Made by a program: the position numbers and the translations under genes. Below are positions 4,106 to 57,813 of a stretch of DNA of 64,000 bases, piece by piece. Position 1 is the first letter of the stretch. Every line of letters starts with the position of its first letter. Source of the stretch: Rhodothermales bacterium. GTDB taxonomy: Bacteria; Bacteroidota; Rhodothermia; Rhodothermales; Bin80. The stretch lies in contig OZ244061.1 in assembly GCA_965215475.1 (NCBI GenBank), positions 3,112,307-3,176,306 on the forward strand, given 5' to 3'. Under the pieces are notes generated by a model. It ran no database searches. It saw only the letters and a program-made list of their open reading frames with translations, and was not told the origin of the DNA.

Positions 4106-4187
4106 AAGTATTTTGCCTGTAGACAGGAATCGGCCCCAAGGTGGAGTGTATACACCGAGATTATAGGGCAAATCAATGCATTCGCAG

Positions 4188-7347: not shown

Positions 7348-7580
7348 GGAGCTTCTGATTTCATATAGAACAGGGCAAACCAGAGGCTATATAGCGTGGT
7401 AATGATCCAAGGGATGACAATTCCAAGTACTACCCATCTAGGCATGCCCCAGAGCAGGTGGATTTCCGCGGATCCATAGGCAAAGAATGCACAGTATCCG
7501 ATCGTCCAGATCATGCAGATCCCCCATGCCACAAGAATATGGATGGCTTCTCGTCTTGCATGCCGAAAGGATGAGGACAT
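7344..7580 (-). CDS. YhdT/DUF997-like small membrane protein
   Basis: 78 aa with two TM segments. HARREAIHIL.. and GMPRWVV resemble E. coli YhdT (HKEARWAL.., GFPRWFE). A 4-nt overlap joins it to the symporter. Confidence 0.65.
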   Translation of the reverse strand: MSSSFRHARREAIHILVAWGICMIWTIGYCAFFAYGSAEIHLLWGMPRWVVLGIVIPWIITTLYSLWFALFYMKSEAP

Positions 7581-7581
7581 C

Positions 7582-8046: not shown

Positions 8047-8048
8047 GA

Positions 8049-41878: not shown

Positions 41879-42130
41879 ATGTACAAAGCTCATATTACAG
41901 TTACACTTCGCCCCACCATCTTAGACCCACAGGGGAAAGCCGCTCATCATGCGTTACAGAATTTGGGTTTTGATCAGATCAACTCTGTTCGAATTGGAAA
42001 GTATATGGAGCTTCAGCTTTCTGCTGATACGGAAGAGGGGGCAGAATCTGCGGCGCGTGCTGCTTGCGAGAAACTTCTTGCCAACCCAATTATGGAGGAT
42101 TTTAGGGTGAGGATTGAACCGGCTGATTAA
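41879..42130 (+). CDS. purS: phosphoribosylformylglycinamidine synthase subunit PurS
   Basis: 83 aa. ..VTLRPTILDPQGKA...AL..LGF..I..VRIGKY.. is the PurS signature. Confidence 0.85.
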   Translation: MYKAHITVTLRPTILDPQGKAAHHALQNLGFDQINSVRIGKYMELQLSADTEEGAESAARAACEKLLANPIMEDFRVRIEPAD

Positions 42131-42354
42131 ATTCTATGCTTCTTAATAAGCTTGTTAAAATACTGAGAATGTGAACATTGCCAGCAAAATCATTCCACAA
42201 AACTTAATGGTACTATTGCGAATGTTGTGGATCAATCTCGGTCTATTGACGCGTTTTGGGAAGCACTTGCGGGTCCATGCAAAGCGAGCATCCCCTTCTC
42301 CTGCTTCCTACATCATCTCCGGCAAGCGATCCGTGTCTCGGTCCGCCCTTCTGG

Positions 42355-43032
42355 TCACCTCATTCTCATCAAGTGTCCGACCTGCATGGATGCGTGTCCT
42401 TCCATGGAGGTGGCTACCATGCGATACAGATAGACGCCGGCCGGGAGGGCAACCTGCTCCAATGTGATCACCTGCTCTCTGCCCGCCGCCATGCGCACCA
42501 TTGGATGGGTATACACCCGCCTGCCCGTCAGATCCAGGACGTCCAGTTTGATTTCGGCCGGCCACGGCAGATCAAAGAGCAGATTCGTAGACGTATGGAA
42601 GGGATTGGGATAGTTGGCATGCACGATCAGCTCCTGGGGATACTCCTTCTGCTCTTCGGTCGCCACCGGCGAGACCACTTCCAGGGTAAAGGTTAAGCTG
42701 GCTTGGGCCCCCTTGGCATCCGTTGCCTTGTAGGTCAGCTCCACCGGGGGTGTGATCTGCACGGGCGTGCCCGCGATCGTGCGCGTGGACGCATCAAACC
42801 TCAGTCCACTCGGAAGAGACAAGAGGTTGAGCGTATACTGAACCGGGTCGGTGCCCCCGGTCACCTCCGGCAAGACCAGTGGATCAATCCCTTGTCCACG
42901 ATCATAGGATTGATTCATGACCGTGGTGACAAACGTGATCTCGTAGATCTCCAGCGTAAATTCCATTGTGGAGATGGCCCCCGGGGCATCGGTCACCGTC
43001 CAGATAAAGGGTTGTGATCCCATAATATTCAC
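42355..43032 (-). pseudogene. 5'-truncated T9SS cargo fragment (two cadherin-like Ig repeats plus T9SS CTD)
   Basis: No signal peptide. DPLVLPEVTGGTDPVQYTL..STRTIAGTP and YPNPFHTSTNLLFDL..LDVLDLTGRRVY parallel the C-terminus of the S8 peptidase at 839-4105. It abuts an IS remnant. Confidence 0.6.
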
Positions 43033-43079
43033 GACGATTGAGTTTTGAAGTTATTTTCAGCACATTGGAGTTTTTTCTG

Positions 43080-44160
43080 AAAGCCTGGTTTAACGCCCTA
43101 AGCCTACCTTGTATGACCATCGCAAGGAGCGTCAGTGGCGCCATCTGGATCTGTTTACTTGGAGGTGTTTTATTCACGGCCGGGTTCCCCGCGTACAAAC
43201 CCCTAAGGATCCGAAGACGATCCGCTGAACGCAACCAAGAACCAAACCAAAGCGTCGGGAATTCTTCGGTGCGGAATGAACCAAGTCCATCGCAGTATGC
43301 ACCGTGCGGTGAAGCGCGGAGAGGCCCGCAGATCTCTGACAAACGTTCGTCCTATCCGTATGGATGAAAAGGCCCTCAAGCGCGGACATCGGCACGCAAC
43401 GGTGGGGAGTGATTCGGATCTTGGAATCGTTCTTGATGTTGGATAAGGGCGCACCAAAAAAGGCACGATCGACCTGTTGGAGGGCATTTTAGAGCGGATC
43501 GGGGATCAGGTATCGATCGATATGTGGCTGGCGTTCATTGGAGCGGTACAAGAAGTCTTCCCCGAGGCCCTCTTGATTCACGATCGGTTTCATTTAATCC
43601 AGTATCTCCATCAAGCCATCCATCAAGCACGAAGGCGAGAGGTCAAAGATCATCCAGAACTCAAAGGGAGCCAGTACGCCCTGTTGAAGAATGAAAAAAA
43701 TCGCACGCAAAAACAAGAAGAAATCTTCCAGGTGATCCAAGAAGCGAACCTCCATGTGAGTGTTGCTTGGCGATTCCGAGAAGACTTCAAAGCCATCTTT
43801 GAATGCACATCGTTCCAGGAAGCGAAAGAGTATCTCAACTTATGGCTTGACGAGGTGCAAGAGACGAGGATTCAGGAAGTCATCAACATTGCAGATCTGT
43901 TTAAGAACCACTTTGATGGAGTTTGCAACGCACTATGGAACCGACCGTCCAATGCAAAAGCAGAACGGATGAACGGAAATATTCAAGAAATCAAAACCAT
44001 TGGGAGAGGATACAGAAGATTTGAAAACTTCCGCGTTGCGATTCCAATGCGGAGGTTTAGACCTGCACCCACACAATTCGTGACAGAACCATCTGAGATA
44101 TTCGTGATTGAAATTAGAGTTTATCCGGTCTTGGGGTATTTGATTGGCCAAAAATAGAAG
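43080..44160 (+). mobile_element. decayed ISL3-family transposase remnant (5'-truncated, internal deletion, stop codon and frameshift)
   Basis: Hand translation gives ..YDHRKERQWRHLDLF.., ..GMNQVHRSMHRAVKRG..IRMDEKALKRGHRHAT..VLDVG*GRTKK.., then the ORF 43477-44157 with DRFHLIQYL. The C-terminus ..QCGGLDLHPHNS* is readable only after a frameshift. Confidence 0.7.
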
Positions 44161-44240: not shown

Positions 44241-44654
44241 ATGCGTAAGCCTCGTACCATCATCAGTATGATTGCCCTTGTGGGATTTGCCTCTCTGCTT
44301 CTGCTCAACTTCGGAGAACAGGTTGGTGGTTATATGCATTTTTCCGAAGCTGAAGCCTCAGGATCTCGTGCTCATGTGGTTGGTTACTGGACACAACCCG
44401 AGACGGCTCATTATGACTCTGAGACCAATGTCTTTTCATTCCACATGAAAGATGAAGAGGGAAGCGTTCGCAAAGTACACTATCATGATATAAAACCTGC
44501 AAGCTTTGAAAATGCAGAAAAGCTGGTCGTGGAAGGCCGTCTAAATGGAGAAATTTTTGAGGCCGAACATATCCTCATGAAATGCCCCTCGAAATATAGC
44601 GAAACGAACACTCTCCATCAGATTCCTCTCTCTTTGGAAGACCTCCAAAATTAA
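44241..44654 (+). CDS. CcmE-like heme chaperone, CxxxY variant, without neighbouring ccm genes
   Basis: N-terminal membrane anchor plus OB-fold pattern (..VHYHDIKPASFENAEKLVVEGRL.GEIFEAEHILMKCPSKY). The CPSKY motif replaces the HxxxY heme-binding motif. Confidence 0.65.
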   Translation: MRKPRTIISMIALVGFASLLLLNFGEQVGGYMHFSEAEASGSRAHVVGYWTQPETAHYDSETNVFSFHMKDEEGSVRKVHYHDIKPASFENAEKLVVEGRLNGEIFEAEHILMKCPSKYSETNTLHQIPLSLEDLQN

Positions 44655-44850: not shown

Positions 44851-44858
44851 TATATTTG
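44851..44858 (+). promoter_or_regulatory. TAnnTTTG (tatatttg) Bacteroidetes-type -7 promoter element upstream of the cluster
   Basis: An exact match to the consensus is seen in the sequence. No clear -33 TTTG was found. Confidence 0.25.
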
Positions 44859-45431
44859 CATTCGGTTAGACATTCTATATTGCTATCACCATTACTTATG
44901 AGAAGTTGCTCTCCATTATTATTGTCTAGAATGGCTTCCTCGGAATCAACCTGCAATTTAGAGGATTCAGAGATACGTTTACGAAAATCCCCCCCCCCTT
45001 TTTTTCGTAGCTCCCTAGTCCTATTTTTGATCCTTTTTGGAACTGGTTGTCAGGGAGTTACTGATTATTGTGACCTTGGAAAGCAAGATTTTTGGCTTGA
45101 ATCACTCTCGGATTGGCTAAATCTTGCCATACAATCCGGTGTCATCGGTTTTCTGATAACATTGATTGTTAGCTTGTTCTTGTACAGAGCACAACTTCAA
45201 AAAGTAAGGGAATGGGATGTTACCGCATCCTCACATCCTCGATTTCTGCCCCTTTGGGTGATCCCGGCTTTATTGATTGCCATTGCGCTTATGCCTGCAA
45301 TCCTATTCCTCCCCCTGGATTGCTCAATAAGGTTGGCACACATAATCGGTGCATGGGCAGGTTCGTTTATCGGTTGGGGAATCGTCTACACCTACTACTC
45401 TATCAGTGTCAAAAAAATACTTAAAAATTAA
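44856..45431 (+). CDS. polytopic membrane protein, first gene of the cluster (start probably ATG 44898 or 44931)
   Basis: Lipobox-like LILFGTGC followed by three hydrophobic helices. The stop lies 2 nt before the next gene. Confidence 0.5.
   Translation: MHSVRHSILLSPLLMRSCSPLLLSRMASSESTCNLEDSEIRLRKSPPPFFRSSLVLFLILFGTGCQGVTDYCDLGKQDFWLESLSDWLNLAIQSGVIGFLITLIVSLFLYRAQLQKVREWDVTASSHPRFLPLWVIPALLIAIALMPAILFLPLDCSIRLAHIIGAWAGSFIGWGIVYTYYSISVKKILKN
44989..45005 (+). repeat. C10 T7 homopolymer tract inside the coding frame (encodes SPPPFF)
   Basis: Counted directly: C at 44989-44998, T at 44999-45005. Confidence 0.9.
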
Positions 45432-45433
45432 TT

Positions 45434-48166
45434 ATGCCGAATTATTTTGTTGCGTGTGGTGGAACAGGGGCTCATGTAATGTTGGCCATGGTGCGTTTAC
45501 ATCTACTGGGATACCCTTTTGGGTTTTTCACCCCAAAAGACGGAAAAAATTTCCCTGATCTTTTTCTGATTGATCAAGATAGTGGATCACTTGTAACCGG
45601 CAAGGACAAGAACACTGCAATGGGGGAAATAAACCGCCTTCTTCGCATTCACCCCGGTCGATACGATCCACAAGTTGCATTTGGTGTTGGTCGCAAGTTG
45701 AAAATATCTCGTGTATCACCATTACCCATTGATGATGGAACATGGTTTGCCTCCCCTAACAACATACTGAAGAACAGATTTTCAGCATCAGACATTCTTG
45801 ATCTGATAACTACTGATCGCCAGCAAGATATTGATTATTCTGGCGGCATGATGGCATCCCCTGCCGTGGGATCCCTTCTTTTTCGCCTCAAAGACGATGA
45901 CAGACCCAATCCTGGGGCACCGAATAATGATAAAAATTATAACACATTACTGACTGATTCTGCAGGAAACCCTGTTGTCGTCTGCGGCTCAATTGTAGGA
46001 GGCACTGGTGCATCTGTTACCCCCACTCTTGCGCGTCAATTAAAAGATGGTCAGGCATCTGAGGTAATGGCAGTTTTGGTTCACAGGTGGTTTAACCTTG
46101 ATGCAGATCAAGGCGGAAAAAATTTTGATGACGCCGTCCGTAGAAATAAGGATATGGAAGACAATGCTGCCAGTGGACTTGTCTCTTCTGCTGAGGAACT
46201 GGCTAATCATTTACCTACAGTTTTAGTAGGAGCGACTAACAAAGGGATGAAAGATCGAAAATATGGTGGTGACTATCTAATGCCTATTGAAGATTCCTAC
46301 ATTCATGCTGTTGCAGCACTCGCTGGCATGACCCATTTACTCGGTGCACACCAGCCCAATGGGCTATATGGAGTATCCGCTTCTGTGGATCACGAGTTGA
46401 GTAATGATATTAAGATTGAAAATTCCACACTAGGCAATTTAATTGATCATGCTGAATTATTTTTAAGATTTTTGGACGCCTATTGCAAGGTCCTATCAAA
46501 CTTCAACGATTCATCCAATGCTGACATTATAGAGAAGTTTTTGAAAAAAACCAGTACTGGTTTCAGTGATCCTCCGCGACACAAGATACATGAATGGATC
46601 TATAACGAAGTTGGAAAGTCTGCCAAAAAGGTGGATTCGGTGTTCAATCAACTAAAAGAGTTCAAGGTTGCCTACGCCGAGTCTCTGGACTGGCTCAGAA
46701 GCCTAACTTCCCCTAGACCCATCCTTTCCCCCAAAGATGATATAGGATCAATCACTTTTCTTAATGAACGCTTAAAAGTAAAGCCACTGGATGGGTCTGC
46801 AGGAACTCGAACTCCTCCTATACCTATGGACAGGGAGGAATATATTGCTCTATCTCTGTATCACTGGCTTGCAGAATGGACTAAGGATTACTACGAGAAA
46901 AAATACAAGAATTTGTTTCCATCTCAAGGTAGTGTTAAAAAAGGATACTGGCCATCTATTGATGAGCCTACACTTCTTCCCGCTTTTAGCAATGCAGGCA
47001 CACTAGCAGGCCTTCATGGTGCAGGTAATATCGGGGCCGCGCTAAAAGCTATGTATGATCCTTCGAAAATTTCTCAAAATGGATGGCCACATTGCTTTGC
47101 TGCTAGTAAGCAATTCAAATTTTTAGTTAAGACTGGAGACAAAGTAGCGATTCGAAAACTTGAAATGTTGCTTGTAGGTCATGCACTTGGTTACCTGAAG
47201 CTGGAGCCTGTTAAATTTCTTGACAAAAACAAAAGGATCCCAGCATCTATTGATACCCTGCTTGAAGAAAAAGGAAATGGTTTGGCGAAATATCGGCTTC
47301 GTGACAAAAAAAACGATATTGTTTATGGATTTAGTTCACCAGACACATTACTATGCCCCACACCAAGAACTGATGATCCAAGAACTGATGATCCAAGAAC
47401 TAATGATGAATTGGCAAAATTATGGGACAAAATCACAGATTATACTGATCCTAATGCGGACTATAAAACATCACAAAAATGGGGGTATTTTGGAAACAAG
47501 GCTCGCAGCAGTGTTGCATTTTGGATTCAGCAGTTGACTAAATATTACCCCAACGAGCCTACATTAGATTGGGTCAAGCCTCTCAAAAATAATCCTCAGG
47601 ACGGACAACCATATGGAATTGTAGAATGGCTTCCATTGTCTGACAACGGGAACAATGAGATTAAACTCCCCTTGCCCCATGTTAAAAATACGCTCCGCCC
47701 TTCTCAAGATATAATTGGCGGGATACAATCTTTTGATGCCCATACACAGGATAAAAAAATACAGACCCGAATTCCAAGCTTCAATAAATGGAATAATTTT
47801 TCCCGCATAAAAGAAATATTTTTGCCCGGTTTAAAAAACCCGATTAGCTTGATCTGGAAAGAGCATCTGGATGGGTTACAAAAAAAGGGGGAGATTTTTG
47901 CATGGGGAAGCGATAAAAAAGATCATATTTGGGTCATGACGGATCTGGAATCAGATCTGATTGAAATCACGAACCTGCGTGTCATAGATATTGAGAAAAT
48001 TCGTATTCCCACTTGTATTCCGCTTAAGCAAAACCCTGTTCCTGGATCTAATACCAAAAAGGGTAGCATAATATTTCCCGATTTGCCCCTCCTTCCAGAA
48101 TATACAAGTTTAGCGATGGTACCTCCTGGCAATAAAAGAAGCGGGAAAAGCAATGATCAATCATAA
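45434..48166 (+). CDS. 910-aa protein with N-terminal tubulin/FtsZ-superfamily-like GTPase loops and a large uncharacterised C-terminal region
   Basis: FVACGGTGAHV (T1-like GxGxxG, aa 5-15), SGGMMASPAVGSLLF (T3-like, aa 136-150) and CGSIVGGTGASVTP (T4-like GGGTGSG, aa 184-197; nt 45998-46015). Confidence 0.5.
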   Translation: MPNYFVACGGTGAHVMLAMVRLHLLGYPFGFFTPKDGKNFPDLFLIDQDSGSLVTGKDKNTAMGEINRLLRIHPGRYDPQVAFGVGRKLKISRVSPLPIDDGTWFASPNNILKNRFSASDILDLITTDRQQDIDYSGGMMASPAVGSLLFRLKDDDRPNPGAPNNDKNYNTLLTDSAGNPVVVCGSIVGGTGASVTPTLARQLKDGQASEVMAVLVHRWFNLDADQGGKNFDDAVRRNKDMEDNAASGLVSSAEELANHLPTVLVGATNKGMKDRKYGGDYLMPIEDSYIHAVAALAGMTHLLGAHQPNGLYGVSASVDHELSNDIKIENSTLGNLIDHAELFLRFLDAYCKVLSNFNDSSNADIIEKFLKKTSTGFSDPPRHKIHEWIYNEVGKSAKKVDSVFNQLKEFKVAYAESLDWLRSLTSPRPILSPKDDIGSITFLNERLKVKPLDGSAGTRTPPIPMDREEYIALSLYHWLAEWTKDYYEKKYKNLFPSQGSVKKGYWPSIDEPTLLPAFSNAGTLAGLHGAGNIGAALKAMYDPSKISQNGWPHCFAASKQFKFLVKTGDKVAIRKLEMLLVGHALGYLKLEPVKFLDKNKRIPASIDTLLEEKGNGLAKYRLRDKKNDIVYGFSSPDTLLCPTPRTDDPRTDDPRTNDELAKLWDKITDYTDPNADYKTSQKWGYFGNKARSSVAFWIQQLTKYYPNEPTLDWVKPLKNNPQDGQPYGIVEWLPLSDNGNNEIKLPLPHVKNTLRPSQDIIGGIQSFDAHTQDKKIQTRIPSFNKWNNFSRIKEIFLPGLKNPISLIWKEHLDGLQKKGEIFAWGSDKKDHIWVMTDLESDLIEITNLRVIDIEKIRIPTCIPLKQNPVPGSNTKKGSIIFPDLPLLPEYTSLAMVPPGNKRSGKSNDQS
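47363..47407 (+). repeat. 3 x 15-bp in-frame tandem repeat (ccaagaactgatgat x2, ccaagaactaatgat) encoding PRTDD-PRTDD-PRTND
   Basis: Read directly from the sequence. Confidence 0.95.
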
Positions 48167-50351
48167 TTGGAATGGTTTATCAGACTATAAATGGGATAAC
48201 AATACTACGGTAGAATGGGACGTGTATTTAATGGGCCGCCCTCAATCAAAGCCTGAAAAGATCAAAGTAACAATTGATAAGAATATCAATCCCGAAGCAG
48301 CTCATTGGATGATTTGGCCAAATTTCAAGTCTCCCAAAAATGACCCGACGCCATGGAGAGCCTATTACGTATATGAAGATTCATCACGACCATCCCTGCA
48401 AGCTCATGTCTTGACCCAAAAGAATGATGGAAGTATTTCTAGACCCAAAACACGCCCCGATGGCATTTCTGGTCCCAGTCGCTCTGTGGAATGTAAAAAT
48501 GGAAAACACACCGGCGGTGCTCCAGTGGCCTTGTGTGCTTATGATACTGATCTTGAAAAATATGTCGGCCTTTATAAAATAGAAATAGTGAATGAGTTTG
48601 ACGACCATGACAATCCAACTCCTTGGAAGCTTGCCTTGGATTTTGGAACTTCACATACGGTAATGGCCCAAGAAGGTCTCAATAATGGAAATGCTGAAAT
48701 AATTTCCCTCAGTAGTGAATTAACTCCTGAGAGCCCAGAGATGTCTTTGCATATCAGTCAGAATTGGCCTGAGCAAAGAGATGTGGAGCGTAAAAAATCT
48801 TTGGAGGTATGGAGACCAACTTATGTAGAGAAGAAGAATTTGAACCCAAGCGCATCCCAAATGCTGCGTTCCGATCTTTGGTCGTCGAAGAAGAAGGAAT
48901 TCGGCACATCCAACAATATGCCGGAAGGATTGGGAGCCCATGACCCATTATGCACTTCCTTCCTGGAATTTACACCGTGAATCTTTAGGTGATGTTATAT
49001 CTGGCTTTAAATGGGAAATGAATGATGCACAGTTTGCAGGGCATGAGCGATGGCTCCAAAAGAGATATCTTGCAATGGTCATTGAACTATTCTTGGCCGA
49101 AGTGATCATGGAAAAACGAGCGTTTCCGCACAAAGTCCAGTTTACATTCACGTATCCCTTACGAGGCAACAAGGATAACTACGAAGAACATGATTAAAGA
49201 AGGTGCTTCCGGAATGTGCAAAAAATCTTGGTTTCGATTTCAATCCAGACGGAAACAATTTATCTTTACTTAGTGAATCCCATGCTGCGGCTGGAATCGT
49301 AGGTACAGGGAATCCTTGTGAAGTAAAACTTGTAGCCGACCTAGGCGGGGGAACCCTTGACATCTTTATTTCCACGTCAGACACGTCAGATAGAGAAGAT
49401 AGTGATAGTAGATTCAAGACAATAGCCGATAGTGCTAAAATTGGGGCGAATCATCTACTCAAAATTCTCGCGAAGTATGGATCTAAATATCTTCCAAACG
49501 ATTCTGCATGGAGGGACAGCTATGAAGAAGCTTATATCAACTTATGTGTGTGGATGCGTTTGAAAGGATCTCGTCAATTATTCGATCCTAGTGGAATAAA
49601 TTCAGAGATTCCTCCACTAAAACTTAATGGCTTCCAAGATGGACCATCTGGGAGCAAGGCAAGAATTCTCATCAGTAAGTATTTCTACCTAATTACTGAT
49701 TTTTTAGCTCGAAATCTTGTCGCGTATGTGACGAAACATGTTCTTAAAGAGTTAACAGATCAAGAGCTTAAGCATGATCTAAAACTATTTCTACAACTCC
49801 AGGGTAACGGATGGCGTTTATGGTATCAGAGTGACGATTACAATCAAATTCATCAGCAAATACTTAAACTTATCAAAGAACGAGCTAACCTCTTATGGAA
49901 CGAGCGATCTCTGGATAGTCATGATTTTTCTATTCAAGAAGATTTATGGGATGATGAAAACAGAAATTTAGGCCCTGACCCTAAGACTGGCCCGATTTGT
50001 AACGCTGTAGGTAAAGGCTCTCTAACAGACGGTACAACAAACTATCACAAATTCCCCTTATCCAAAGTAAAGATTTTTCATCCTGAAGAGGAAACAATCG
50101 AAAGAAATTGGTTTGATCTTCTACCATTTGAGAAGTTGCCACAGAAGTCAACTCCTAGAATCAAAGAATTTGATCCAGGATTATGGTTAGGCCGTACATC
50201 AAAAGAAATCAGTGCGATTGAGGCTCAACGTATGGCTAAAATTAATGCTGAAATAGAAAGTCCAACTTGGGGTATAAATACGATGGATGCACCTATTGGG
50301 GCGGCTATTTGGGAGCAGATGCTTAAATCGGCATATTTGAGGATGGATTGA
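48153..50351 (+). pseudogene. Hsp70/actin-fold (ASKHA) ATPase with a ~155-aa N-terminal extension, split over three ORFs by two frameshifts
   Basis: LALDFGTSHTV (phosphate-1, nt 48639-) in ORF 48153-48980. VQFTFTYPL (the 'vitvPa' strand) in ORF 48940-49197. LSESHAAAG and ADLGGGTLDIFIS (phosphate-2, nt 49338-) in ORF 49203-50351. Frames run 0 to 1 to 0. Confidence 0.6.
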
Positions 50352-50606
50352 AACATCCATTGAAGCTTTCAAGGAATGATTATGATTGATCTGATGGTTG
50401 ATGTCTCTGGCACTCCTCACAAATCAAATCATAACTGATGCTCTCTCTGATTGCTACCAACCCAATAAACAACCTGCATGATGGTGATGATCCATATTCC
50501 ATTGCGCGCTCAATTTCACCCTGATCTGTTCGTTGTATGACACGAGCCTTGAATTCTACCATTTTATTTCTGATGCTCAAGGTTTAAGTTGACCACTATC
50601 TGTGAT

Positions 50607-51011
50607 ATGAAGCTGAGGACGAAATTCTTGAAATTGATGGAAGTAGCACGAACTACTCTGCAGGGGGAATGGGCCAAAAAAGGGCTTGAATTATTGGTTC
50701 GTGTAGTTCTCGTTGCAACTCGTCGGACCGATGGAAATCCAGCATCATTAGATCTACTCATTCTTCGTGATTTGAAAAAGATCCTTGAGGATTTTCCCAG
50801 TATGCCTTGCCCACCAGCAGGATCGCCTACTCTCTTTCCACGAGAAGATTCAAAAACTAAACTCCTTATTTCCCCTAGATGGATACTCCGATCACTATAC
50901 AAGATTCGTATTCAATTAGGTGGACCAGTTCCAACGCATATCAGAGTTTTACGTGATGCTCTGGAATCACTGCAATGCATCTATGTAACCTCACAAAATG
51001 AAGCGAAATGA
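50607..51011 (+). CDS. hypothetical 134-aa protein (ATG at 50607)
   Basis: ATGA overlap with the downstream gene (51008-51011). No motif recognised. Confidence 0.4.
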   Translation: MKLRTKFLKLMEVARTTLQGEWAKKGLELLVRVVLVATRRTDGNPASLDLLILRDLKKILEDFPSMPCPPAGSPTLFPREDSKTKLLISPRWILRSLYKIRIQLGGPVPTHIRVLRDALESLQCIYVTSQNEAK

Positions 51012-52420
51012 TACTCATGCACAGATACAGATTCGTTTATTTAATCCTAATACTTGCGATTGTTATCTCACAACCTAGCAATGGGCAGTCAAATGATCGA
51101 CCTGTCGAAAGTTATGCTCAAGAGGTTGCCGTTCAATCTGTTTGGGAGAATGACTTTTATGGTCAAATAGCACCATTGGAATCTCAGGATTTTTATCTGC
51201 TTTGGGATGTGTCGATCCCTATGGGCGGGTATATCCACGAAAGTAATCGTAGCCTTTCCGTTGCACTTGCCAAGATACAGGAGTTGTTAAAAAATGGAAT
51301 TTTGAATTCTGACTATGGAAGAACAACTATTCAATGTATGGGAATCAAAGACACCATTGATCCTTTGGAGAAATGCGATGACAATCAACTTAGAGACAGG
51401 GATTTTTTTCTTGGATTAGATTCTGACGTTGGGCTGGGTATTGAGCTTATGATTGACAGTCTTAAGACCGGAAAAATGATGGGGGCAGTTCTCATCACTG
51501 ATTTGATGGCAACTACCGAATATGGCACTGGCGCAACAGCATTATTACCGTATTTTAATGACGAGGAGCTTATGGCATATTTTACAGATGGTAAAATATA
51601 CATGGGGATCTTGGGGATTGCTCCCGATTATTGGGGACTCAAAAAAGGACCTTGTGCGACAAAATCAGGGCCATTGGGATGTTGGTTCAATGAAGGACTC
51701 CAAGAGTGGGTACCTCTCAACCAAACGGTGAAGAGACCGATATATGTTCTCGTTATGGGGCGTCATTTGGAGGGAGAGGATAAACATTCTAATTCCGTGA
51801 ATACGATTATTGAGGAGATATACGAATCTTTGCGTGATTTGGGTTATGAAGTAAAATTGGAACGCGTGACGCAAGGGGCGTTAGGCCTTCAGACTCAATT
51901 AAAATGGCACAATCCTTCCACAGAAGGCAGAGGACGCCCACCCATCAATCTTGACTCAGACAATGGATTTTCTTGTAATAATAGAAATGTCCACACGTTA
52001 TCCAGCGAATTTGACGATCGTCAAATTCGTGTTGATGAGATAGATGATACGGGCATAATTAATGGTCTTGAAACATTTGACCAAGTACGAAAAGAGGATG
52101 AACATGGAATAAAATTGGATCTTAACTGCGAGAATGTATTGAATTTGATCCGAAAAGAGAGACGTTGTAGAGGAGATGAAGATCCTGATAGACCTTGCAA
52201 CTGCACGATTGACTCTGTATTTAAACCAGATCTGAGCAGGATCACTGCCAAAGTCAGCTATCAATCCGAGAATGGAATGGGTTGGGGCAAATGGTCATCT
52301 ATACAACATAGTGATAGTTTGACACTTTATTTAGCAGATTTTATTGATGGATTGCACCCTGACCATTATAACGCAATGATTTCCCCTGCTCCTCCTCTTG
52401 ATTGTAGCAAAGCGAGGTAA
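51008..52420 (+). CDS. secreted or periplasmic Cys-rich protein, possible degenerate vWA fold
   Basis: Signal peptide MHRYRFVYLILILAIVISQPSNGQS. FYLLWDVSIPMGG (DxSxP in place of the MIDAS DxSxS) and AVLITDLMAT (in place of the vvllTDG strand). Eight Cys in the mature part. Confidence 0.45.
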   Translation: MILMHRYRFVYLILILAIVISQPSNGQSNDRPVESYAQEVAVQSVWENDFYGQIAPLESQDFYLLWDVSIPMGGYIHESNRSLSVALAKIQELLKNGILNSDYGRTTIQCMGIKDTIDPLEKCDDNQLRDRDFFLGLDSDVGLGIELMIDSLKTGKMMGAVLITDLMATTEYGTGATALLPYFNDEELMAYFTDGKIYMGILGIAPDYWGLKKGPCATKSGPLGCWFNEGLQEWVPLNQTVKRPIYVLVMGRHLEGEDKHSNSVNTIIEEIYESLRDLGYEVKLERVTQGALGLQTQLKWHNPSTEGRGRPPINLDSDNGFSCNNRNVHTLSSEFDDRQIRVDEIDDTGIINGLETFDQVRKEDEHGIKLDLNCENVLNLIRKERRCRGDEDPDRPCNCTIDSVFKPDLSRITAKVSYQSENGMGWGKWSSIQHSDSLTLYLADFIDGLHPDHYNAMISPAPPLDCSKAR

Positions 52421-52438: not shown

Positions 52439-53962
52439 TTGCAAAACCCTCTTCATTATGTGTTACTTGTGTTATGTATTGCTGTCCTAGTCTTACTACT
52501 TCTTCGTTATATGTTACTTGTGTTATGTATTGCTGTCCTGGTCTTGGTAATCATATGTCAATATCTAAACTTTAATAAATCAAAAACATCTTTAACTGAT
52601 ATAGATGATTTATTAAAGAAGCTTTTAGAGCGCTCCGACTGGAAGGGGAATTGGGAAATACTAGATCGTCTCGTTGTCCCTCATTTAGATGATATTCAAA
52701 GATTCTCCAATGCCGCATTAGTTACTGGTATAGGTGGCACGATGGGGATATTCTTCCTTGAAGCCTTGTATTTAATACCCAGTGATGTATCCAATTTAGA
52801 CATTACCATCATTGTTCAAGGTGCAATCCCAGCTCTACTTTCTAGTTTGTGCGGAATATTTTTTCATCTCTTCATCCTATCAAAACATTTATCAGAGGCT
52901 CAAGAAAGCGTAACTGACGTGGAGATGAGATGGTTAGAGTCGGAAAATGTGCCATTGCGTGATGGACCAATCGTGAATGTTGACATCAGCGGTGCTGTTG
53001 AAAAAATTTTCCAAGAAATTTCAGCTACTCAGAAAGGTGTATCGGACTCTACGCAAGAAATTAGCAGGCTTCTACAAGAAAACAAAGAGATTTCTCTGAT
53101 TCAGCGATCCTCTGCCAAAGAGATAAAAGAAGGTGTTCAAATCTTTGCAGAACATCTTAAATCTCTCCCCGATGATCTTCGAAAATCACTAGATTTGACT
53201 GAGATTCAACGTTTATTAAAGGAGCAGCAATCAGATGTGCTTGCAATTTTATCTGATGTTAAAGGAGCGACTTCACAAATCGTTAATGCTCAGGATCAAT
53301 TCACAGATGTAGGGACTGAGTTACTGGAGTCGATTAAACAAAATTTGATAAACCATCAAACATCGACCCAGAAAATTTGTGACAATGTTCAAACGCTTAC
53401 CGAGACAATAGAAACTCTTCCCGGCGATATTCGAAGCTCACTGGAAATAAGTGAATTCTTTGATAAAGCTGCAAGAAGCCATCTTGACGAATTGTATAAG
53501 GCTTTTAAAGATCATCAATCTGAATTAAAAAGAGCAATTATTGATAATCAAGAGCAACAGAAACGATGGTTAGCTAATAACATTCACAAAGTTGTTGCAG
53601 ATGTTATTGATGATTTACAGAAACAAATTAATGAAACTATTAAAGATCCGCTTGACACGATGAGCAAAAAACTCAGTGCTGCTACGAAAGAAATGCCAGA
53701 TGCTGCAAATAAGTTCGGGACGGACCTCATTGAATCTGCGAATACACTCGCCACGATTCCAAAAGAACTTGAAAAGGTGTCAGAAGGTGTCAATGAAGTG
53801 GTTCGTGCAACTGCGGACGCTGCCTTGAAGCCTCTATCTGACGAAATGAAAGATTTTGTAGGCACTATTCAGGATACTCATCAGAGACTTGAAAAAACTA
53901 TTCATGGACTAGTACACCTGATTGAAAATCTGATTAGAGGAATGGAAATTAGAAGTAAATGA
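52439..53962 (+). CDS. MotA/ExbB/TolQ-like membrane protein with ~340-aa coiled-coil tail (ZorA-like architecture); start may be ATG 52511
   Basis: TM1, then ALVTGIGGTMGIFFLEAL (compare LGLLGTVxGI) and IIVQGAIPALLSSLCGIFFHLFIL. After that comes a long heptad-rich, Q/E/K/L-rich tail to the C-terminus. Confidence 0.55.
   Translation: MQNPLHYVLLVLCIAVLVLLLLRYMLLVLCIAVLVLVIICQYLNFNKSKTSLTDIDDLLKKLLERSDWKGNWEILDRLVVPHLDDIQRFSNAALVTGIGGTMGIFFLEALYLIPSDVSNLDITIIVQGAIPALLSSLCGIFFHLFILSKHLSEAQESVTDVEMRWLESENVPLRDGPIVNVDISGAVEKIFQEISATQKGVSDSTQEISRLLQENKEISLIQRSSAKEIKEGVQIFAEHLKSLPDDLRKSLDLTEIQRLLKEQQSDVLAILSDVKGATSQIVNAQDQFTDVGTELLESIKQNLINHQTSTQKICDNVQTLTETIETLPGDIRSSLEISEFFDKAARSHLDELYKAFKDHQSELKRAIIDNQEQQKRWLANNIHKVVADVIDDLQKQINETIKDPLDTMSKKLSAATKEMPDAANKFGTDLIESANTLATIPKELEKVSEGVNEVVRATADAALKPLSDEMKDFVGTIQDTHQRLEKTIHGLVHLIENLIRGMEIRSK
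52457..52546 (+). repeat. ~39-bp direct repeat at 51-bp offset (52457-52495 / 52508-52546, 2 mismatches) duplicating YV/MLLVLCIAVLVL
   Basis: Aligned by hand. Confidence 0.85.
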
Positions 53963-54729
53963 AAAGACGCTCTGAGACACAGGTTACCGTATGGCCTGCA
54001 ATTACGGATTTGATGATTGCGATTGTCGTCATTGCAGTTTTAGCGGGGATCATTGGATATAGTAAATATACTGAGATAAAATTAACGGCAGGTCCCTCTA
54101 AAATTCGTAATGATATACTGGAGGAGATTGACAGTTTACTGAAGAATTCGAATCTGAGCGTTGAAGTACTTAAAGATGAAAGCGTTTTACGTCTATCTGA
54201 CGGTATCGTTAACTTTGAACTCGGAGAAATTTCGCCCATTGAAGATCACAAGAAAAATGTGGCGATATTGGCTGAGGTGTTAGCTCAGGTGGTTCCGTGT
54301 TACATTTCATGCCCATCTCAAACGATCACACATGTGTCCACTGACAGCCATAGCAGAGATAAATCCTATTGTCAAACAATCTCCTGTAACGAAACCAGCA
54401 ACTCACAGTGGCTCATTGGGACAGTACTCATTGAAGGACATACGGACACTATCCGTGTAATAGAAGGGAGAAATCGATTCAAGGATAATCTTGAGTTATC
54501 CTCAATGCGGGCTGCCGAAGTCTATCGGATGATTACTGCTTGGGAACCCTCAATCGGAGAAATGAAGAATTCACAAGAGGTTCCTATCTTCAGTACAAGT
54601 GGTTATGGCTCGATGCGGCTTGCAGAACCAGATATGCCCTCCAGTGACCAGAATAGACGAATTGACTTACGATTTCTTTTTGAACGACGCCAAGAAAGAA
54701 ATCCAACAGAGGAATCAAGTTTGCCATGA
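53959..54729 (+). CDS. MotB/OmpA-like peptidoglycan-anchored stator subunit (ZorB-like)
   Basis: N-terminal TM with conserved Asp (VWPAITDLMIAIVVI, compare MotB YADFMTAMM). C-terminal OmpA_C blocks IEGHTDT..NLELSSMRAAEV..GYGS..NRRIDLRF. ATGA overlap with the upstream gene. Confidence 0.8.
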   Translation: MKRRSETQVTVWPAITDLMIAIVVIAVLAGIIGYSKYTEIKLTAGPSKIRNDILEEIDSLLKNSNLSVEVLKDESVLRLSDGIVNFELGEISPIEDHKKNVAILAEVLAQVVPCYISCPSQTITHVSTDSHSRDKSYCQTISCNETSNSQWLIGTVLIEGHTDTIRVIEGRNRFKDNLELSSMRAAEVYRMITAWEPSIGEMKNSQEVPIFSTSGYGSMRLAEPDMPSSDQNRRIDLRFLFERRQERNPTEESSLP

Positions 54730-55902: not shown

Positions 55903-56247
55903 ATGAGTCATCTTTCATCACAGGATCCGCAAATTTATGCTGCCATTGAGCGGGAAGTCCATCGGCAGAATTATGGGTTAGAGTTGATTGCTTCGGAAAA
56001 TTTTGTTTCCAGAAGTGTTATGCAGGCCCAAGGTTCTGTATTCACGAATAAATATGCCGAGGGACTACCCGGAAAACGCTACTATGCCGGATGTGAATTT
56101 ACCGATGTCGCAGAGGATTTAGCACGTACTCGCGCCAAAAAACTGTTTCAATGTGATTGGGTCAATGTGCAACCTCATTCTGGAGCTTCTGCCAATGCTG
56201 CCGTTTACCTTAGTTGTCTTAATCCGGGAGATACCTTCCTCGTATAG
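55903..56247 (+). pseudogene. glyA: serine hydroxymethyltransferase, N-terminal ~113-aa fragment only
   Basis: ..[59 protein letters not shown] then a stop. Full-length GlyA is about 415-420 aa. Confidence 0.85.
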
Positions 56248-56409: not shown

Positions 56410-57813
56410 ATGCGTCGACTGATTTTGATCTTTCTTGTGATTAGCGGATGTAGTGTATCTCAGCAGGATCCGATAAATATACTGATCCTGTATACGGATG
56501 ATCAAAGATTTAATACCATCGGTGCTCTGGGGAATAATGAAGTCAGAACACCGAACATAGACACTCTGGTCAGGAGAGGGACAGCCTTCACCCATGCACA
56601 TACCATGGGTGGACTGCAAGCCGCACTCTGCGCACCCAGCCGAGCAATGCTTATGACCGGAAGACCTCTCTTCCTCTTAGACAGGATTGGCGACAATATT
56701 CCGGCGGAACATACCATGATGCCTGAAGCTGCAGCAAAGGCAGGGTATATTACCTTCGGTACCGGGAAATGGCATAATGATCGCGCGTCATTTTCTCGGG
56801 CATTTCAGAAAGCAGACCATATCTTCATCGGTGGAATGCATTTGCCTGAAGTTGGAGGACATGAAGCGCCAGAGTTGTATGAATTTGATCCTACAGGTAC
56901 CTACCCGAACCATGACCGGCGGCAAGTTCAAGGATATTCTAGTACTCTTTTCACGAATGCTGCCATTGATTTTTTGAATGAAGTCAGTACCGTAGATCAG
57001 CCATTTTTTGCGTATGTATCCTTTACCTCACCTCACGATCCGAGAACTCCTCCTGAACCCTATGCTGGTTGGTATCACCCAGATTCCGTTTCTCTGCCAC
57101 CTAATTTTTTGCCAACGCATCCATTTGACAATGGTCACCTTGATGTTCGGGATGAACTTCTTCGTGAGCTCCCTCGAACCGAAGCAATGATCCGGGAGGA
57201 ACTCGCCCTTTATTACGGAATGATCAGTGAGTTGGATGCTCAGGTTGGACGTATTATCTCTGCACTGGAGAAAAATGGACAATTGGACAATACGCTCGTT
57301 GTTTTAGCAGGAGATAATGGGCTAGCCGTTGGAAGCCATGGACTTCTGGGAAAGCAAAATTTGTATGAGCATAGTATGCGGGTGCCGCTCATCATGGCTG
57401 GCCCCGGGATCCCTGCGAATGAGCAGCGCAACCAACTGGTCTATATCTTTGACATTTTCCCGACCATCGCAGAGATTCTAAACCTCCCTTCCCCGGAAAC
57501 GATTGAGGGCCAAAGCCTGAATCCATTCATTGAGAATCCACAACTCCCAGGCCGTAACTCAGTATTTTATGCATACCGTGATTTACAGCGTGGAGTTCGG
57601 ACAGTCGACGGATGGAAACATATCCAGTACCTCGTAAACGGAGTACATACGGAACAACTCTTTGATCTGAACTCAGATCCGCACGAAACAAACGACTTGG
57701 CTTCGGATTCTTCGCATATCATGAAACTGGATGAAATGCGCGAATTGCTCGCACAGGAAAGCGTGTACTGGTCAGACCCACTGGATCTATCTGCCTCGGA
57801 CTGGGGACGTTAA
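56410..57813 (+). CDS. sulfatase (formylglycine-dependent) lipoprotein
   Basis: Lipobox LVISGCS, LYTDDQR and the CAPSRAMLMTGR (CxPxR) motif. Confidence 0.85.
   Translation: MRRLILIFLVISGCSVSQQDPINILILYTDDQRFNTIGALGNNEVRTPNIDTLVRRGTAFTHAHTMGGLQAALCAPSRAMLMTGRPLFLLDRIGDNIPAEHTMMPEAAAKAGYITFGTGKWHNDRASFSRAFQKADHIFIGGMHLPEVGGHEAPELYEFDPTGTYPNHDRRQVQGYSSTLFTNAAIDFLNEVSTVDQPFFAYVSFTSPHDPRTPPEPYAGWYHPDSVSLPPNFLPTHPFDNGHLDVRDELLRELPRTEAMIREELALYYGMISELDAQVGRIISALEKNGQLDNTLVVLAGDNGLAVGSHGLLGKQNLYEHSMRVPLIMAGPGIPANEQRNQLVYIFDIFPTIAEILNLPSPETIEGQSLNPFIENPQLPGRNSVFYAYRDLQRGVRTVDGWKHIQYLVNGVHTEQLFDLNSDPHETNDLASDSSHIMKLDEMRELLAQESVYWSDPLDLSASDWGR

Follow-up and report, generated by a model that had tools for sequence, protein, structure and literature searches.

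A divergent tubulin/FtsZ-like domain at the start of a frameshifted giant gene in a proposed Zorya-like membrane cassette of a Rhodothermales bacterium

The window analysed here, a 64-kb stretch of Rhodothermales DNA, contains a segment (44-54 kb) in which GC drops from ~0.47-0.51 to 0.39-0.42, and whose upstream edge is marked by the remnant of an ISL3-family transposase (43477-44157, forward strand, as are all features below; Pfam DDE_Tnp_ISL3, E 1.9e-47, limited to profile positions 57-240 of 240). A glyA remnant is also present at the locus. The segment carries a cassette whose gene order is conserved across four phyla: a small membrane protein, a giant protein, in some loci a 140-aa protein, a 470-aa exported protein, a ZorA-like protein, and a ZorB-like protein. 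Local HMM counts over 58 related loci, in which this order is kept, located the transmembrane protein in 56, always immediately 5' of the giant gene, the 470-aa family in 48, downstream of it, the ZorA-like head in 43, and the ZorB-like protein in 40. The first gene (44856-45431), 191 aa as called from a TTG start that is probably over-extended, encodes two hydrophobic, TM-like helices (aa 87-105 and 128-146) and matched nothing in Pfam, NCBIfam or PADLOC. The giant gene, second in the cassette, is the main subject of this report.

Downstream of the giant gene lies the reading frame of the 140-aa protein (50589-51011), of unknown function and conserved within the cassette's Rhodothermales branch, for which same-position homologues occur in 12 loci and library searches gave no family. 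It is followed by the 470-aa protein (51008-52420), which has an N-terminal hydrophobic segment and is probably exported or membrane-anchored; its alignment (A4) reveals an invariant D67-x-S69-x-P71 with G74, and D165 with a near-invariant T169, while PDB and Pfam searches yielded no match. The ZorA-like protein (52439-53962), whose gene bears a 51-nt tandem duplication at its 5' end, combines hydrophobic head helices, with the conserved motifs ALVTGIGGTM and ALLSSLxGI (alignment A6), with a helical tail of ~350 aa. PADLOC ZorA models match it at E 1.8e-7 to 1e-3 over the tail only, the PDB entry of ZorA (8qyd_A) does so at E 3.6e-4 amid many coiled-coil matches, and the head alone gives a non-significant match to MotA/TolQ/ExbB (E 1.7); the ZorA assignment draws mainly on the low-complexity helical tail. 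The last gene (53959-54729) encodes a protein with one N-terminal TM helix that resembles a peptidoglycan-binding stator subunit of the MotB/OmpA family, being matched by PADLOC ZorB1 (E 2.3e-43 over aa 14-248), Pfam OmpA (E 2.9e-4) and MotB-family models of NCBIfam; the ZorB models find no match in the last cassette gene of the Acidobacteriota and Gemmatimonadota branches. Pfam, PADLOC and NCBIfam searches found no nuclease or toxin domain in the cassette, and no vWA protein, P-loop (Walker-A) GTPase or protein kinase was detected in it.

The second gene was initially described from an ORF of 910 aa with an ATG start (45434-48166), taken to be a complete protein. Alignment to relatives does not bear this out, and indicates that the ORF covers the first 57% of a gene whose product in relatives is a protein of ~1,600 aa: the orthologue is mostly a single ORF of 1,580-1,690 aa among 52 genome loci, and the tubulin-like and Hsp70-like profiles described below fall within one ORF in ~44 of 56 loci. 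In tblastn searches with intact orthologues, the window copy spans orthologue residues 1-1621 continuously, but through four frames (45434-48148, 48144-48926, 48889-49197 and 49200-50342), split into four ORFs by three 1-nt indels at ~48146, 48927 and 49190. This continuity implies that the 910-aa ORF ends at a frameshift, in the A-run 48146-48149, and not at a natural stop. Fragment 2 (48144-48926; called ORF 48153-48980; orthologue residues 897-1153) is shifted by +1 from the frame of the 910-aa ORF, has no internal stop, and is 63% identical to the intact 1622-aa orthologue from the L008 MAG by tblastn. Fragment 3 (48931-49197; called ORF 48940-49197; orthologue residues ~1154-1244) follows another +1 shift and was delimited by tblastn against the proteins P0003, P0006, P0016 and that of L008, together with a reading of the junction sequences. 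Fragment 4 (49200-50351; called ORF 49203-50351; orthologue residues 1245-1621) follows a -1 shift and is 61% identical to the L008 protein by tblastn.

The window copy is therefore a probable pseudogene; if the sequence is correct, its coding capacity is limited to a truncated product of 910 aa that includes the tubulin-like domain, and the locus is then most likely decaying. It is possible, if doubtful, that the organism itself carries an unbroken gene with a product of ~1,620 aa, the frame changes being assembly or base-calling errors. Each of the four fragments retains 50-63% identity to intact orthologues, and none has stop codons beyond those made by the frame changes, the first junction falls in a short A-run (gggAAAAgc, 48143-48151), and relatives come from long-read metagenome assemblies in which some contigs have 1x to 4x coverage. 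Against this, the remainder of the window holds many long unbroken ORFs (up to 1,088 aa), which indicates a low overall rate of indel errors; no break interrupts the 910-aa ORF over its 2.7 kb, yet three indels lie inside 1.05 kb, two of them at non-homopolymer sites; the transposase and glyA remnants and the duplication in the ZorA-like gene are further signs of decay; and broken copies of the giant gene are present in other assemblies too. Programmed ribosomal frameshifting, for instance a +1 shift at A-AAA-G (48146-48150) that would give both the 910-aa and a longer product, can be set aside as exceedingly improbable, for although tRNA-Lys could re-pair on AAAA in +1 and the resulting SGKAMINHNW matches orthologues, in these a single frame covers the region, without a slippery site (that of L008 has no break), two more frame changes without slippery sequence would be required, and there is no sign of a stimulatory element.

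The preliminary description drew attention to three glycine-rich motifs in the 910-aa ORF, and a motif search placed each exactly where it had been reported: ACGGTGAHV at aa 7-15, GGMMASPAVG at aa 137-146 and VGGTGASVTP at aa 188-197. In terms of tubulin/FtsZ loops, these comprise T1 (CGGTGAH, aa 8-14), a T3-like loop (GMMASPAVG, 138-146) and T4 (VGGTGAS, 188-194), to which a T5-like WF (219-220) can be added. Chance is an inadequate explanation for the motifs, judging from their rarity and conservation: GGTG occurs only twice in the 26,698 aa that the six frames of the window yield in ORF segments of 100 aa or longer, both times within the 910-aa protein, and when 117 related N-terminal domains are aligned, the T1 core G9-G10-[T/S]11-G12 is 99-100% conserved, as are S186 (100%), G189-G190-T191-G192 (97-100%) and P197 (100%) of the T4 region, with G138, P143 and G146 of the T3-like loop at 100%, 85% and 92%. 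The spacing between loops is indeed longer than in FtsZ, with ~129 residues from T1 to T3 against ~50.

Structural comparison sustains the proposal that these loops sit on a tubulin-like fold. AlphaFold2 (AF2) models of the N-terminal domain (aa 1-~320, 45434-46393; pLDDT 81.8, pTM 0.85) and of the full 910-aa ORF (pLDDT 82.2, pTM 0.82) both match tubulin-superfamily structures: the Foldseek PDB top 50 of either model consist entirely of tubulin, FtsZ, CetZ or BtubA, including CetZ2 (4b45_A) and FtsZ (9lfx_A, 4u39 and 1w5a). The best match is 4b45_A, for the N-domain model (E 4.1e-5, probability 1.00), and 32 matches have E<=1e-3. The TM-scores to FtsZ and CetZ are low (0.38-0.49, rmsd 6-8 A; TMt 0.49 for B. 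subtilis FtsZ), and identity is only ~10-14%. Weak sequence evidence concurs. Pfam Tubulin (PF00091) covers aa 180-214 of the 910-aa protein, the T4 region, at a sub-threshold E of 0.0034, and is sub-threshold in 14 of 16 family members (best E 2.7e-5), and hhalign against E. coli FtsZ aligned T3-S4-T4-H4-S5-T5, whereas the family profile retrieved nothing from PDB sequences at E<=10. Tubulin_2 (PF13809) has no match to the window protein in a Pfam search and is sub-threshold in only two of the 16 family members; the family profile (A2), which collects 861 proteins at E<=1e-3, nevertheless reaches distant relatives that score above the 27-bit gathering threshold of PF13809 (P0107, 40.1 bits; P0129, 36.5; P0112, 28.3).

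These data support the N-domain as a highly divergent nucleotide-binding domain of the tubulin/FtsZ superfamily, nearest the branch of FtsZ-like 1 and Pfam Tubulin_2. That it is instead a generic Rossmann-like GxGxxG (di)nucleotide-binding domain, resembling tubulin/FtsZ by chance, is very improbable. CGGTGAH after a beta-strand is compatible with a loose GxGxxG/A pattern, and the sub-threshold sequence scores and TM-scores below 0.5 leave some room for such a reading; however, P-loop and NAD/FAD Rossmann proteins are absent from the top 50 structural matches of both models, three or four loops agree with FtsZ both in order and in sequence (GxxxxPxVG in T3, GGTG in T4, (P)WF in T5), and relatives of the family exceed the Tubulin_2 threshold. 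The tubulin/FtsZ-like domain has T1, T3, T4 and T5 in the same order as FtsZ, CetZ and tubulin, with loop sequences similar to those of FtsZ. It differs from these proteins in carrying ~100 additional residues, in a T4 of VGGTGAS in place of GGGTGSG, and in forming part of a 1,600-aa protein with several domains. It also has no C-terminal activation domain: FtsZ_C or Tubulin_C was not detected in the 910-aa protein, and past aa ~316 the AF2 model is near-wholly helical to aa ~491, without the FtsZ-type C-terminal sheet. Conservation is also lacking at the T7 catalytic residues; a clear T7 loop was not found in the 117-domain alignment, and because the best candidate acidic column is 58% D/E, with Val in the window protein, polymerisation-activated GTP hydrolysis is only putative.

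The remainder of the 910-aa ORF, ~600 residues considered unrecognisable from the start, has remained so, with no Pfam family at E<=10; AF2 models aa ~333-491 as a bundle of helices and aa ~503-900 as an alpha/beta region (together 46430-48148). This middle region (~700 residues in the full protein) is conserved along its entire length in homologues. The actin/Hsp70-fold protein that had been regarded as a separate neighbour proved to be the C-terminal portion of the ancestral giant protein. The phosphate-1 motif DFGTSHT lies at 48639-48659 in fragment 2, and the phosphate-2 motif DLGGGTLD at 49338-49361 in fragment 4; a profile of the C-terminal region from full-length homologues matched Hsp70 nucleotide-binding domains (6nhk_A, E 9e-6) and ParM (E 1e-3), both aligned on the two motifs. 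From these matches, the C-terminus of the giant protein is recognisable as an actin/Hsp70-like (ASKHA) ATPase domain, so that the layout of the protein is a tubulin-like domain, ~700 familyless residues, and an actin/Hsp70-like ATPase domain. It has no name in any library searched, and PADLOC gave no match.

Three known types of system share features with this cassette. In FtsZl1 proteins (PF13809, Makarova & Koonin 2010), as in the giant protein, T1 and T4 are conserved in a very divergent N-terminal domain of the FtsZ/tubulin GTPase type, with family-specific inserts between these loops; neither T6-H7 nor a C-terminal FtsZ domain can be recognised; the C-terminus is extended by a long stretch that is not tubulin-like; the operons also encode membrane and OmpA-family proteins; and the distribution is patchy. 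The giant-protein profile reaches members of their Pfam family. In addition to the missing PF13809 match, the giant protein differs in its extension, which is a coiled coil plus helical domain in FtsZl1 and here runs from a helical bundle through an alpha/beta region to a full actin/Hsp70-like ATPase; moreover, FtsZl1 operons contain vWA, GTPase and OmpA proteins (PMC2875224), whereas the partners here are a ZorA-like/ZorB-like pair. Zorya (ZorAB with ZorCD, ZorE or ZorFG) shares the peptidoglycan-binding ZorB-like protein, a ZorA-like protein with a MotA/ExbB-like G-x-G-T motif and long helical tail, co-transcription with large cytoplasmic proteins, and an island-like context. In contrast to Zorya, PADLOC finds none of ZorC, D, E, F and G in the cassette, the ZorAB-like pair stands at the operon end, two extra envelope proteins are present, the ZorA-like head has no significant sequence similarity, and the cytoplasmic partner contains no helicase or nuclease, only tubulin-like and Hsp70-like NTPase domains. 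Lastly, the predicted DO-GTPase/GAP1-N2 conflict systems include tubulin and HSP70 NTPases as non-enzymatic, probably assembly-forming, membrane-proximal components (Kaur, Burroughs, Iyer & Aravind 2020, PMC7159879); there, these are separate genes with non-overlapping neighbourhood themes, in Firmicutes and Actinobacteria, in systems built on DO-GTPase and GAP1 with vWA and FNIII proteins (PMC7159879), whereas the cassette unites both in one polypeptide, has no Walker-A GTPase, and pairs them with a stator-like couple.

The giant-protein family is rare, with 52 loci in ~185,000 species genomes, distributed among Rhodothermales, Acidobacteriota, Gemmatimonadota and Latescibacterota; one MAG holds three copies, and the gene is disrupted in ~1/5 of loci, the window copy included. 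Its neighbours include an integrase, a relaxase and GmrSD_C, NERD and helicases, a DUF4011 helicase, and HicB, Uma2 and PDDEXK_9; they can be called only loosely defence-like. These features bear on whether the cassette could instead be a housekeeping machine for membrane remodelling or cytoskeletal work (vesicles, envelope maintenance, surface motility), which we consider unlikely. Membrane remodelling was the role proposed by Makarova & Koonin for FtsZl1 operons with their vWA and OmpA-family partners (PMC2875224), several cassette proteins are membrane-bound or exported, and the cassette is free of nuclease and toxin domains; yet the patchy occurrence in unrelated phyla, the mobile neighbours or low-GC segments, the occasional multiple copies and the frequent disruption are traits of accessory or conflict genes, and not of core cell biology.

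The reading we favour, with moderate confidence, is that the cassette is a variant of FtsZ-like conflict/membrane systems that joins a Zorya-type stator to a tubulin-like/Hsp70-like effector, whose gene is broken in the window. Its function, any role in defence included, is inferred. As such, it would be a conflict system of Zorya-like build, anchored in the envelope, spread by horizontal transfer and most likely directed against phages. A peptidoglycan-tethered, ion-driven ZorAB-like unit, together with the exported 470-aa and small membrane proteins, would sense envelope perturbation, and the long ZorA-like tail would relay the signal to the giant cytoplasmic protein, which may respond by nucleotide-dependent self-assembly or conformational switching, with GTP at its tubulin-like and ATP at its Hsp70/actin-like domain. 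Since no recognisable nuclease or catalytic effector domain is present, the output would be membrane-proximal protein assembly or remodelling, rather than DNA cleavage.

The open reading frame at 45434-48166, which the preliminary description had treated as a self-contained protein, is indeed an ATG-initiated, forward-strand frame of 910 codons, but tblastn shows that it covers only part of a larger gene; the actin/Hsp70-like protein that had been listed as a separate neighbor is likewise part of this gene, since its DFGTSHT and DLGGGTLD motifs are located in the remainder of the same coding region. Relatives are rare: only 24 were found in 5.8 billion proteins, most of them 1,200-1,600 aa in length, and among 1.84 billion cluster representatives, searched exhaustively with a profile, full-length members are concentrated at 1,500-1,700 aa. 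The closest intact orthologue, a 1,622-aa protein that is 63% identical and originates from a Rhodothermales metagenome-assembled genome (MAG; locus L008, OZ244857.1, 2779696-2784564), is encoded by the window over residues 1-1621 without gaps, in four reading frames of the forward strand (45434-48148, 48144-48926, 48889-49197, and 49200-50342, as defined by tblastn with full-length relatives), with the part of the gene that follows the 910-aa frame being represented by ORFs at 48153-48980, 48940-49197, and 49203-50351. The frame changes correspond to a +1 indel in the run gggAAAAgc (48143-48151, at about 48146-48149), a second +1 indel near 48927, and a -1 indel near 49190, and the only stops in the gene are those that these changes create. 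In 52 loci from species-representative genomes, the gene is mostly a single ORF of 1,580-1,690 aa, and in about 44 of 56 loci, one ORF matches both the tubulin-like and the Hsp70-like profile. That the gene is broken, in the sequence as given, is nearly certain.

Real pseudogenisation is a more likely origin for these frameshifts than assembly error. The latter would be in line with the fact that the related assemblies are long-read MAGs, some of whose contigs have very low coverage, but many other ORFs in the window are long and unbroken, reaching 1,088 aa, and the 2.7-kb first fragment is itself unbroken, yet three indels are concentrated within 1.05 kb. Further decay is visible at the locus, in the form of an ISL3 transposase remnant, a 114-aa glyA remnant, and a 51-nt tandem duplication in the ZorA-like gene described below; pseudogenisation is favored because of the long intact ORFs elsewhere, the clustering of the indels, and this additional decay. 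Programmed frameshifting can be dismissed, given the unbroken frame of the orthologues and the lack of a slippery sequence at two of the three sites. In the window genome, the system is probably inactive, or at best yields a truncated 910-aa protein.

Split copies of the giant gene are common: roughly one in five of the 58 related loci has the tubulin-like and Hsp70-like parts in different ORFs. The locus of the closest metagenomic relative (L005, protein P0003, 50% identity) harbors frameshifts near aa 160 of the tubulin-like domain and inside the gene for the 470-aa partner protein (locus coordinates 1111-6017 and 6791-8181). In locus L061, and also in L062, a single in-frame TGA (3986-3994 of L061) splits the giant gene into ORFs of 989 and 628 aa, and may represent either a nonsense mutation or a site of read-through; the two assemblies may stem from a single sample.

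The N-terminal domain of the giant protein (N-domain, aa 1 to about 320) does belong to the tubulin/FtsZ superfamily, as an extreme member that sits with Tubulin_2/FtsZl1, with sequence evidence that is weak but consistent and structural evidence that is cleaner. Pfam PF00091 matches aa 180-214, within the T4 region of the profile, with an E-value of 0.0034 and a score of 18.1 bits, where the cut-off is 33, and 14 of 16 family members also match this model, all below the cut-off and with a best E-value of 2.7e-5. Beyond this sub-threshold Tubulin match, searches of the 910-aa ORF against Pfam, NCBIfam, and PADLOC yielded nothing, and the family profile of the N-domain retrieved nothing from the PDB sequences at E<=10. 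PF13809 (Tubulin_2), which corresponds to the 'FtsZ-like 1' (FtsZl1) family of Makarova and Koonin (PMC2875224; PMC9871819), did not match the window protein at E<=10 (its gathering score being 27 bits), and gave sub-threshold matches in two of 16 family members. The family profile, however, gathers 861 proteins at E<=1e-3, and distant relatives among them do pass the PF13809 gathering score, namely P0107 (40.1 bits), P0129 (36.5), and P0112 (28.3), all of which have profile E-values of 1e-13 to 1e-21 and also match PF00091. The link to Tubulin_2 is therefore transitive, since it is these distant relatives, and not the window protein, that satisfy the model. Stand-alone Tubulin_2-like proteins of 450-520 aa form a large group.

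Alignment with hhalign against E. coli FtsZ, informative in local but not in global mode when a single FtsZ sequence is employed, brought together S4-T4-H4-S5, and a broader alignment extended from T3 through T5 (pairwise E 7e-4). GMMASPAVG was paired with GAGANPEVG of FtsZ, GSIVGGTGASVTP with AGMGGGTGTGAAP, and RWFNL with KPFNF, within KPFNFEG. AlphaFold2 models built from the family alignment reached a pLDDT of 82.2 and a pTM of 0.82 for the full ORF, and 81.8 and 0.85 for the N-domain; with both models, the top 50 Foldseek matches in the PDB belong exclusively to the tubulin/FtsZ superfamily, including CetZ1, CetZ2, FtsZ of several species, alpha-, beta-, and gamma-tubulins, BtubA, and an Asgard tubulin. 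The best match has an E-value of 4.1e-5 and a probability of 1.00, and 32 matches are found at E<=1e-3, with TM-scores that are modest (0.38-0.49); a Foldseek search of viral structures (BFVD) provided no significant match. The possibility of a generic Rossmann GxGxxG domain was rejected, as the top 50 structural matches of either model include no P-loop or NAD/FAD Rossmann protein. The preliminary proposal of tubulin/FtsZ-type loops is thus upheld by the T1, T3, T4, and T5 features and by structural matches restricted to the tubulin superfamily, and the Foldseek search bears equally against the Rossmann, P-loop, or FAD/NAD fold that had been named as the outcome that would undermine it. The assignment of the fold to this superfamily can be made with high confidence.

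The three motifs reported initially (ACGGTGAHV at aa 7-15, GGMMASPAVG at aa 137-146, and VGGTGASVTP at aa 188-197) are located precisely where they had been placed. When all ORF segments of 100 aa or more are collected from the six frames of the window (26,698 residues), the tetrapeptide GGTG is present twice, in each case within the 910-aa protein; this count is a crude background, and the alignment of relatives is a stronger test. When 117 related N-terminal domains are aligned, the T1 loop (FVACGGTGAHV, aa 5-15), which in the AlphaFold2 model lies between a strand (4-8) and a helix (9-29), shows 99% conservation of G9, G10, and G12, and 100% of T/S11, while D47 and D49 are conserved in 98% and 100% of the domains, respectively. 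In FtsZ and tubulin, the T4 signature GGGTG(S/T)G follows strand S4. Its counterpart here, VVVCGSIVGGTGASVTP, is located between a strand (180-186) and a helix (190-205) of the model, and although the first and last glycines of the 7-mer are replaced (V188, S194), S186, G189, G190, and G192 are invariant, and T191 is conserved in 97% of the domains; P197 is also present in all of them. The T3 loop of FtsZ reads G-A-G-A-N-P-E-V-G and its T5 loop K-P-F-x-F-E-G; the T3-like segment G138-M-M-A-S-P-A-V-G146 retains G138 in 100%, P143 in 85%, and G146 in 92% of the domains, and the T5-like segment R218-W-F220 displays an invariant F220. As judged from this alignment, the motifs are real, conserved, and under selection.

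The domain departs from its canonical relatives in other regions. Approximately 100 residues are inserted between T1 and T4, a feature that has also been reported for FtsZl1. In the canonical fold, the T7 'synergy' loop, NxDxxD/E, follows helix H7 and carries a catalytic acidic residue; the candidate in the window protein, G310-L-Y-G-V-S-A-S-V-D319, follows a helix (289-303), and its best column (318) has D/E in 58% of the 117 domains, being Val in the window protein, where Asp is found at 319. FtsZ_C and Tubulin_C gave no Pfam match at E<=10 in the 910-aa ORF, and after aa ~316 the modeled chain is almost wholly helical up to aa ~491; a C-terminal activation domain is absent from FtsZl1 as well. 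Binding of a nucleotide by the N-domain is predicted, and plausible.

The remainder of the 910-aa ORF had been called unrecognisable, and aa ~333-900 in fact match no Pfam family at E<=10, although AlphaFold2 resolves this stretch into a helical bundle (aa ~333-491) and an alpha/beta region (~503-900). A potential P-loop at its end, GNKRSGKS (aa 899-906, window 48128-48151), is an artefact of the frameshift junction, with the intact orthologue displaying PNHPNKGR. Further downstream, the phosphate-1 (DFGTSHT, 48639-48659) and phosphate-2 (DLGGGTLD, 49338-49361) motifs of actin/Hsp70-like (ASKHA) ATPases occur in the expected order. A profile of the C-terminal ~580 residues of intact homologues matches the nucleotide-binding domain of the Hsp70 mortalin (6nhk_A, E 9e-6), that of DnaK, and ParM (E 1e-3); the Hsp70 and ParM matches align on the phosphate-1 and phosphate-2 motifs, and Pfam HSP70 and MreB match the C-terminal region below threshold. 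The evidence for the two domains therefore indicates that the intact protein is a fusion of a tubulin/FtsZ-like and an actin/Hsp70-like (ASKHA) module. Distant relatives of 1,540-1,969 aa share the same layout, with a tubulin-like N-terminus and an Hsp70-like C-terminus; these include P0107 (1747 aa) and P0098 (1969 aa), the latter of which carries an additional C-terminal TerD domain (Pfam E 2.2e-37).

The giant gene belongs to a cassette whose order is conserved across related loci. Local HMMs over 58 such loci, where those lacking a component are largely short contigs, identified a small membrane protein (44856-45431) in 56, the giant protein (45434-50351) in all 58, a 140-aa protein (50589-51011) in 12 of the Rhodothermales branch, a 470-aa protein with an N-terminal hydrophobic segment (51008-52420) in 48, a ZorA-like protein (52439-53962) in 43, and a ZorB-like protein (53959-54729) in 40. 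The ZorB-like protein matches the PADLOC model ZorB1 (PDLC00610) with an E-value of 2.3e-43 over aa 14-248, in addition to OmpA and MotB, and the ZorB model is also matched in L008; within the Rhodothermales branch, the sequence matches thus lend strong support to its putative identity as ZorB, while PADLOC detected no ZorB in the L001 and L003 branches. The identity of the ZorA-like protein is the weaker of the two assignments, resting on architecture (hydrophobic head helices, GIGGTM and ALLSSLxGI motifs, and a helical tail of ~350 aa) and on tail-only HMM matches: PADLOC ZorA is matched in the helical tail only (E 1.8e-7 to 1e-3), ZorA in the PDB (8qyd_A, E 3.6e-4) is one of many coiled-coil matches, and a head-only profile gave no significant match in the PDB (best E 1.7).

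A tandem duplication of 51 nt, in frame and with two 45-nt copies that are 93% identical, is located at 52450-52545, at the 5' end of the ZorA-like gene, and repeats the coding stretch of the first transmembrane helix. Because L008 and similar relatives begin at the position of the second copy, the TTG start called at 52439 may lie too far upstream; alternatively, the protein may possess an additional helix.

In the alignment of the 470-aa partner family (A4), D67-x-S69-x-P71, G74, and D165 are invariant, T169 is near-invariant, and several cysteines are conserved. The D-x-S-x-P motif resembles the MIDAS of vWA domains; a search for vWA in Pfam and the PDB gave no match, nor did the family profile find a match of any kind in either database. 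PADLOC did not match the giant, 470-aa, 140-aa, or small membrane proteins, and found none of ZorC, ZorD, ZorE, ZorF, or ZorG in the cassette, which differs from Zorya systems in that every type-defining partner (ZorC and ZorD, ZorE, or ZorF and ZorG) is missing.

All hosts of the family are MAGs, from Rhodothermales, several Acidobacteriota orders, Longimicrobiales, and Latescibacterota. One Rhodothermales MAG (OZ241874.1) harbors three copies of the giant gene (L010, L011, L036), and two complete cassettes lie near-tandem around 1.06-1.10 Mb. Neighbors in other loci include an integrase, a relaxase, and GmrSD_C; NERD and helicases; a DUF4011-type helicase; and HicB, Uma2, and PDDEXK_9. In the window, the cassette segment has a GC content of 0.39-0.42, compared to 0.46-0.51 for the flanking housekeeping genes, with ppdK, topA, and purS upstream and DUF4159 downstream. 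The ISL3-family transposase remnant (43477-44157), which covers only positions 57-240 of the 240 in the Pfam profile, is located at the edge of the segment, with purS on one side and a lone CcmE-domain gene (44241-44654) on the other, at the point where GC falls from 0.515 to about 0.42; ORFs just upstream of it (42100-43500) have no Pfam match. On the downstream side of the cassette, the glyA remnant (55903-56247) encodes only the first 114 aa of serine hydroxymethyltransferase, and is followed by a sulfatase-like gene (56410-57813). Neither a tRNA nor flanking direct repeats were found at the ends of the island.

The closest known systems are FtsZl1/Tubulin_2, Zorya, DO-GTPase systems with tubulin or HSP70 components, and canonical FtsZ and CetZ. 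[quoted passage not shown] FtsZl1 operons encode a vWA protein, a P-loop GTPase, and/or an OmpA-family protein; here, the OmpA-family protein is present and the cassette contains no Walker-A GTPase. No vWA, GTPase, or kinase partner of the giant family was recognized, which sets it apart from these known systems. It is absent from Pfam, NCBIfam, and PADLOC, and no account of a tubulin-Hsp70 fusion or of its pairing with ZorAB-like proteins was found in the searchable literature, whose coverage is incomplete.

In Zorya, cytoplasmic effectors receive their signal via the long tail of an ion-driven ZorA5B2 unit that is anchored to peptidoglycan (PMC11946911, PMC11890865); tubulin and HSP70 components of prokaryotic conflict systems have been read as formers of NTP-dependent assemblies (PMC7159879). 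By analogy, the ZorAB-like pair, along with the small membrane protein and the exported 470-aa protein, could sense perturbation of the envelope and would then cause the giant protein to self-assemble or switch at the membrane, in a manner dependent on GTP and ATP. Since no nuclease domain can be recognized, an assembly or remodeling event is a more likely output than DNA degradation. Overall, this account of the family is considered fairly probable. A Zorya-like conflict function, suggested by analogy, stands at about even chances; its main rival is a non-defence role in membrane remodeling, of the kind originally suggested for FtsZl1 operons (PMC2875224). The most specific proposal, that of an undescribed Zorya-like immune system in which a ZorAB-type ion-driven stator activates a giant tubulin-like GTPase/Hsp70-like ATPase effector, which on breach of the envelope would build a nucleotide-dependent membrane filament or cage and block infection or kill the cell, is speculative and rather unlikely.

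Cells build dynamic filaments from two NTPase folds, tubulin/FtsZ and actin/Hsp70, and the conserved family described here combines both in a single polypeptide of 1,600 aa, genetically coupled to a stator of the MotAB/ZorAB type. If the immune proposal were true, the protein would represent an immune effector of a 'cytoskeletal' kind, and the first case in which both cytomotive NTPase folds are naturally fused; should its tubulin-like domain bind GTP and self-associate, the family would widen the range known for the tubulin superfamily. Zorya effectors known so far are nucleases or helicases, and the pairing of ZorAB-like proteins with a non-nuclease, probably assembly-forming partner would widen the range of activities under the control of Zorya-type motors. 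For the window genome, the consequence is that the annotated 910-aa protein is a piece of a broken gene. The interest thus lies in the family, more than in this damaged copy, and intact orthologues such as that of L008 open the Zorya-type idea to direct testing.
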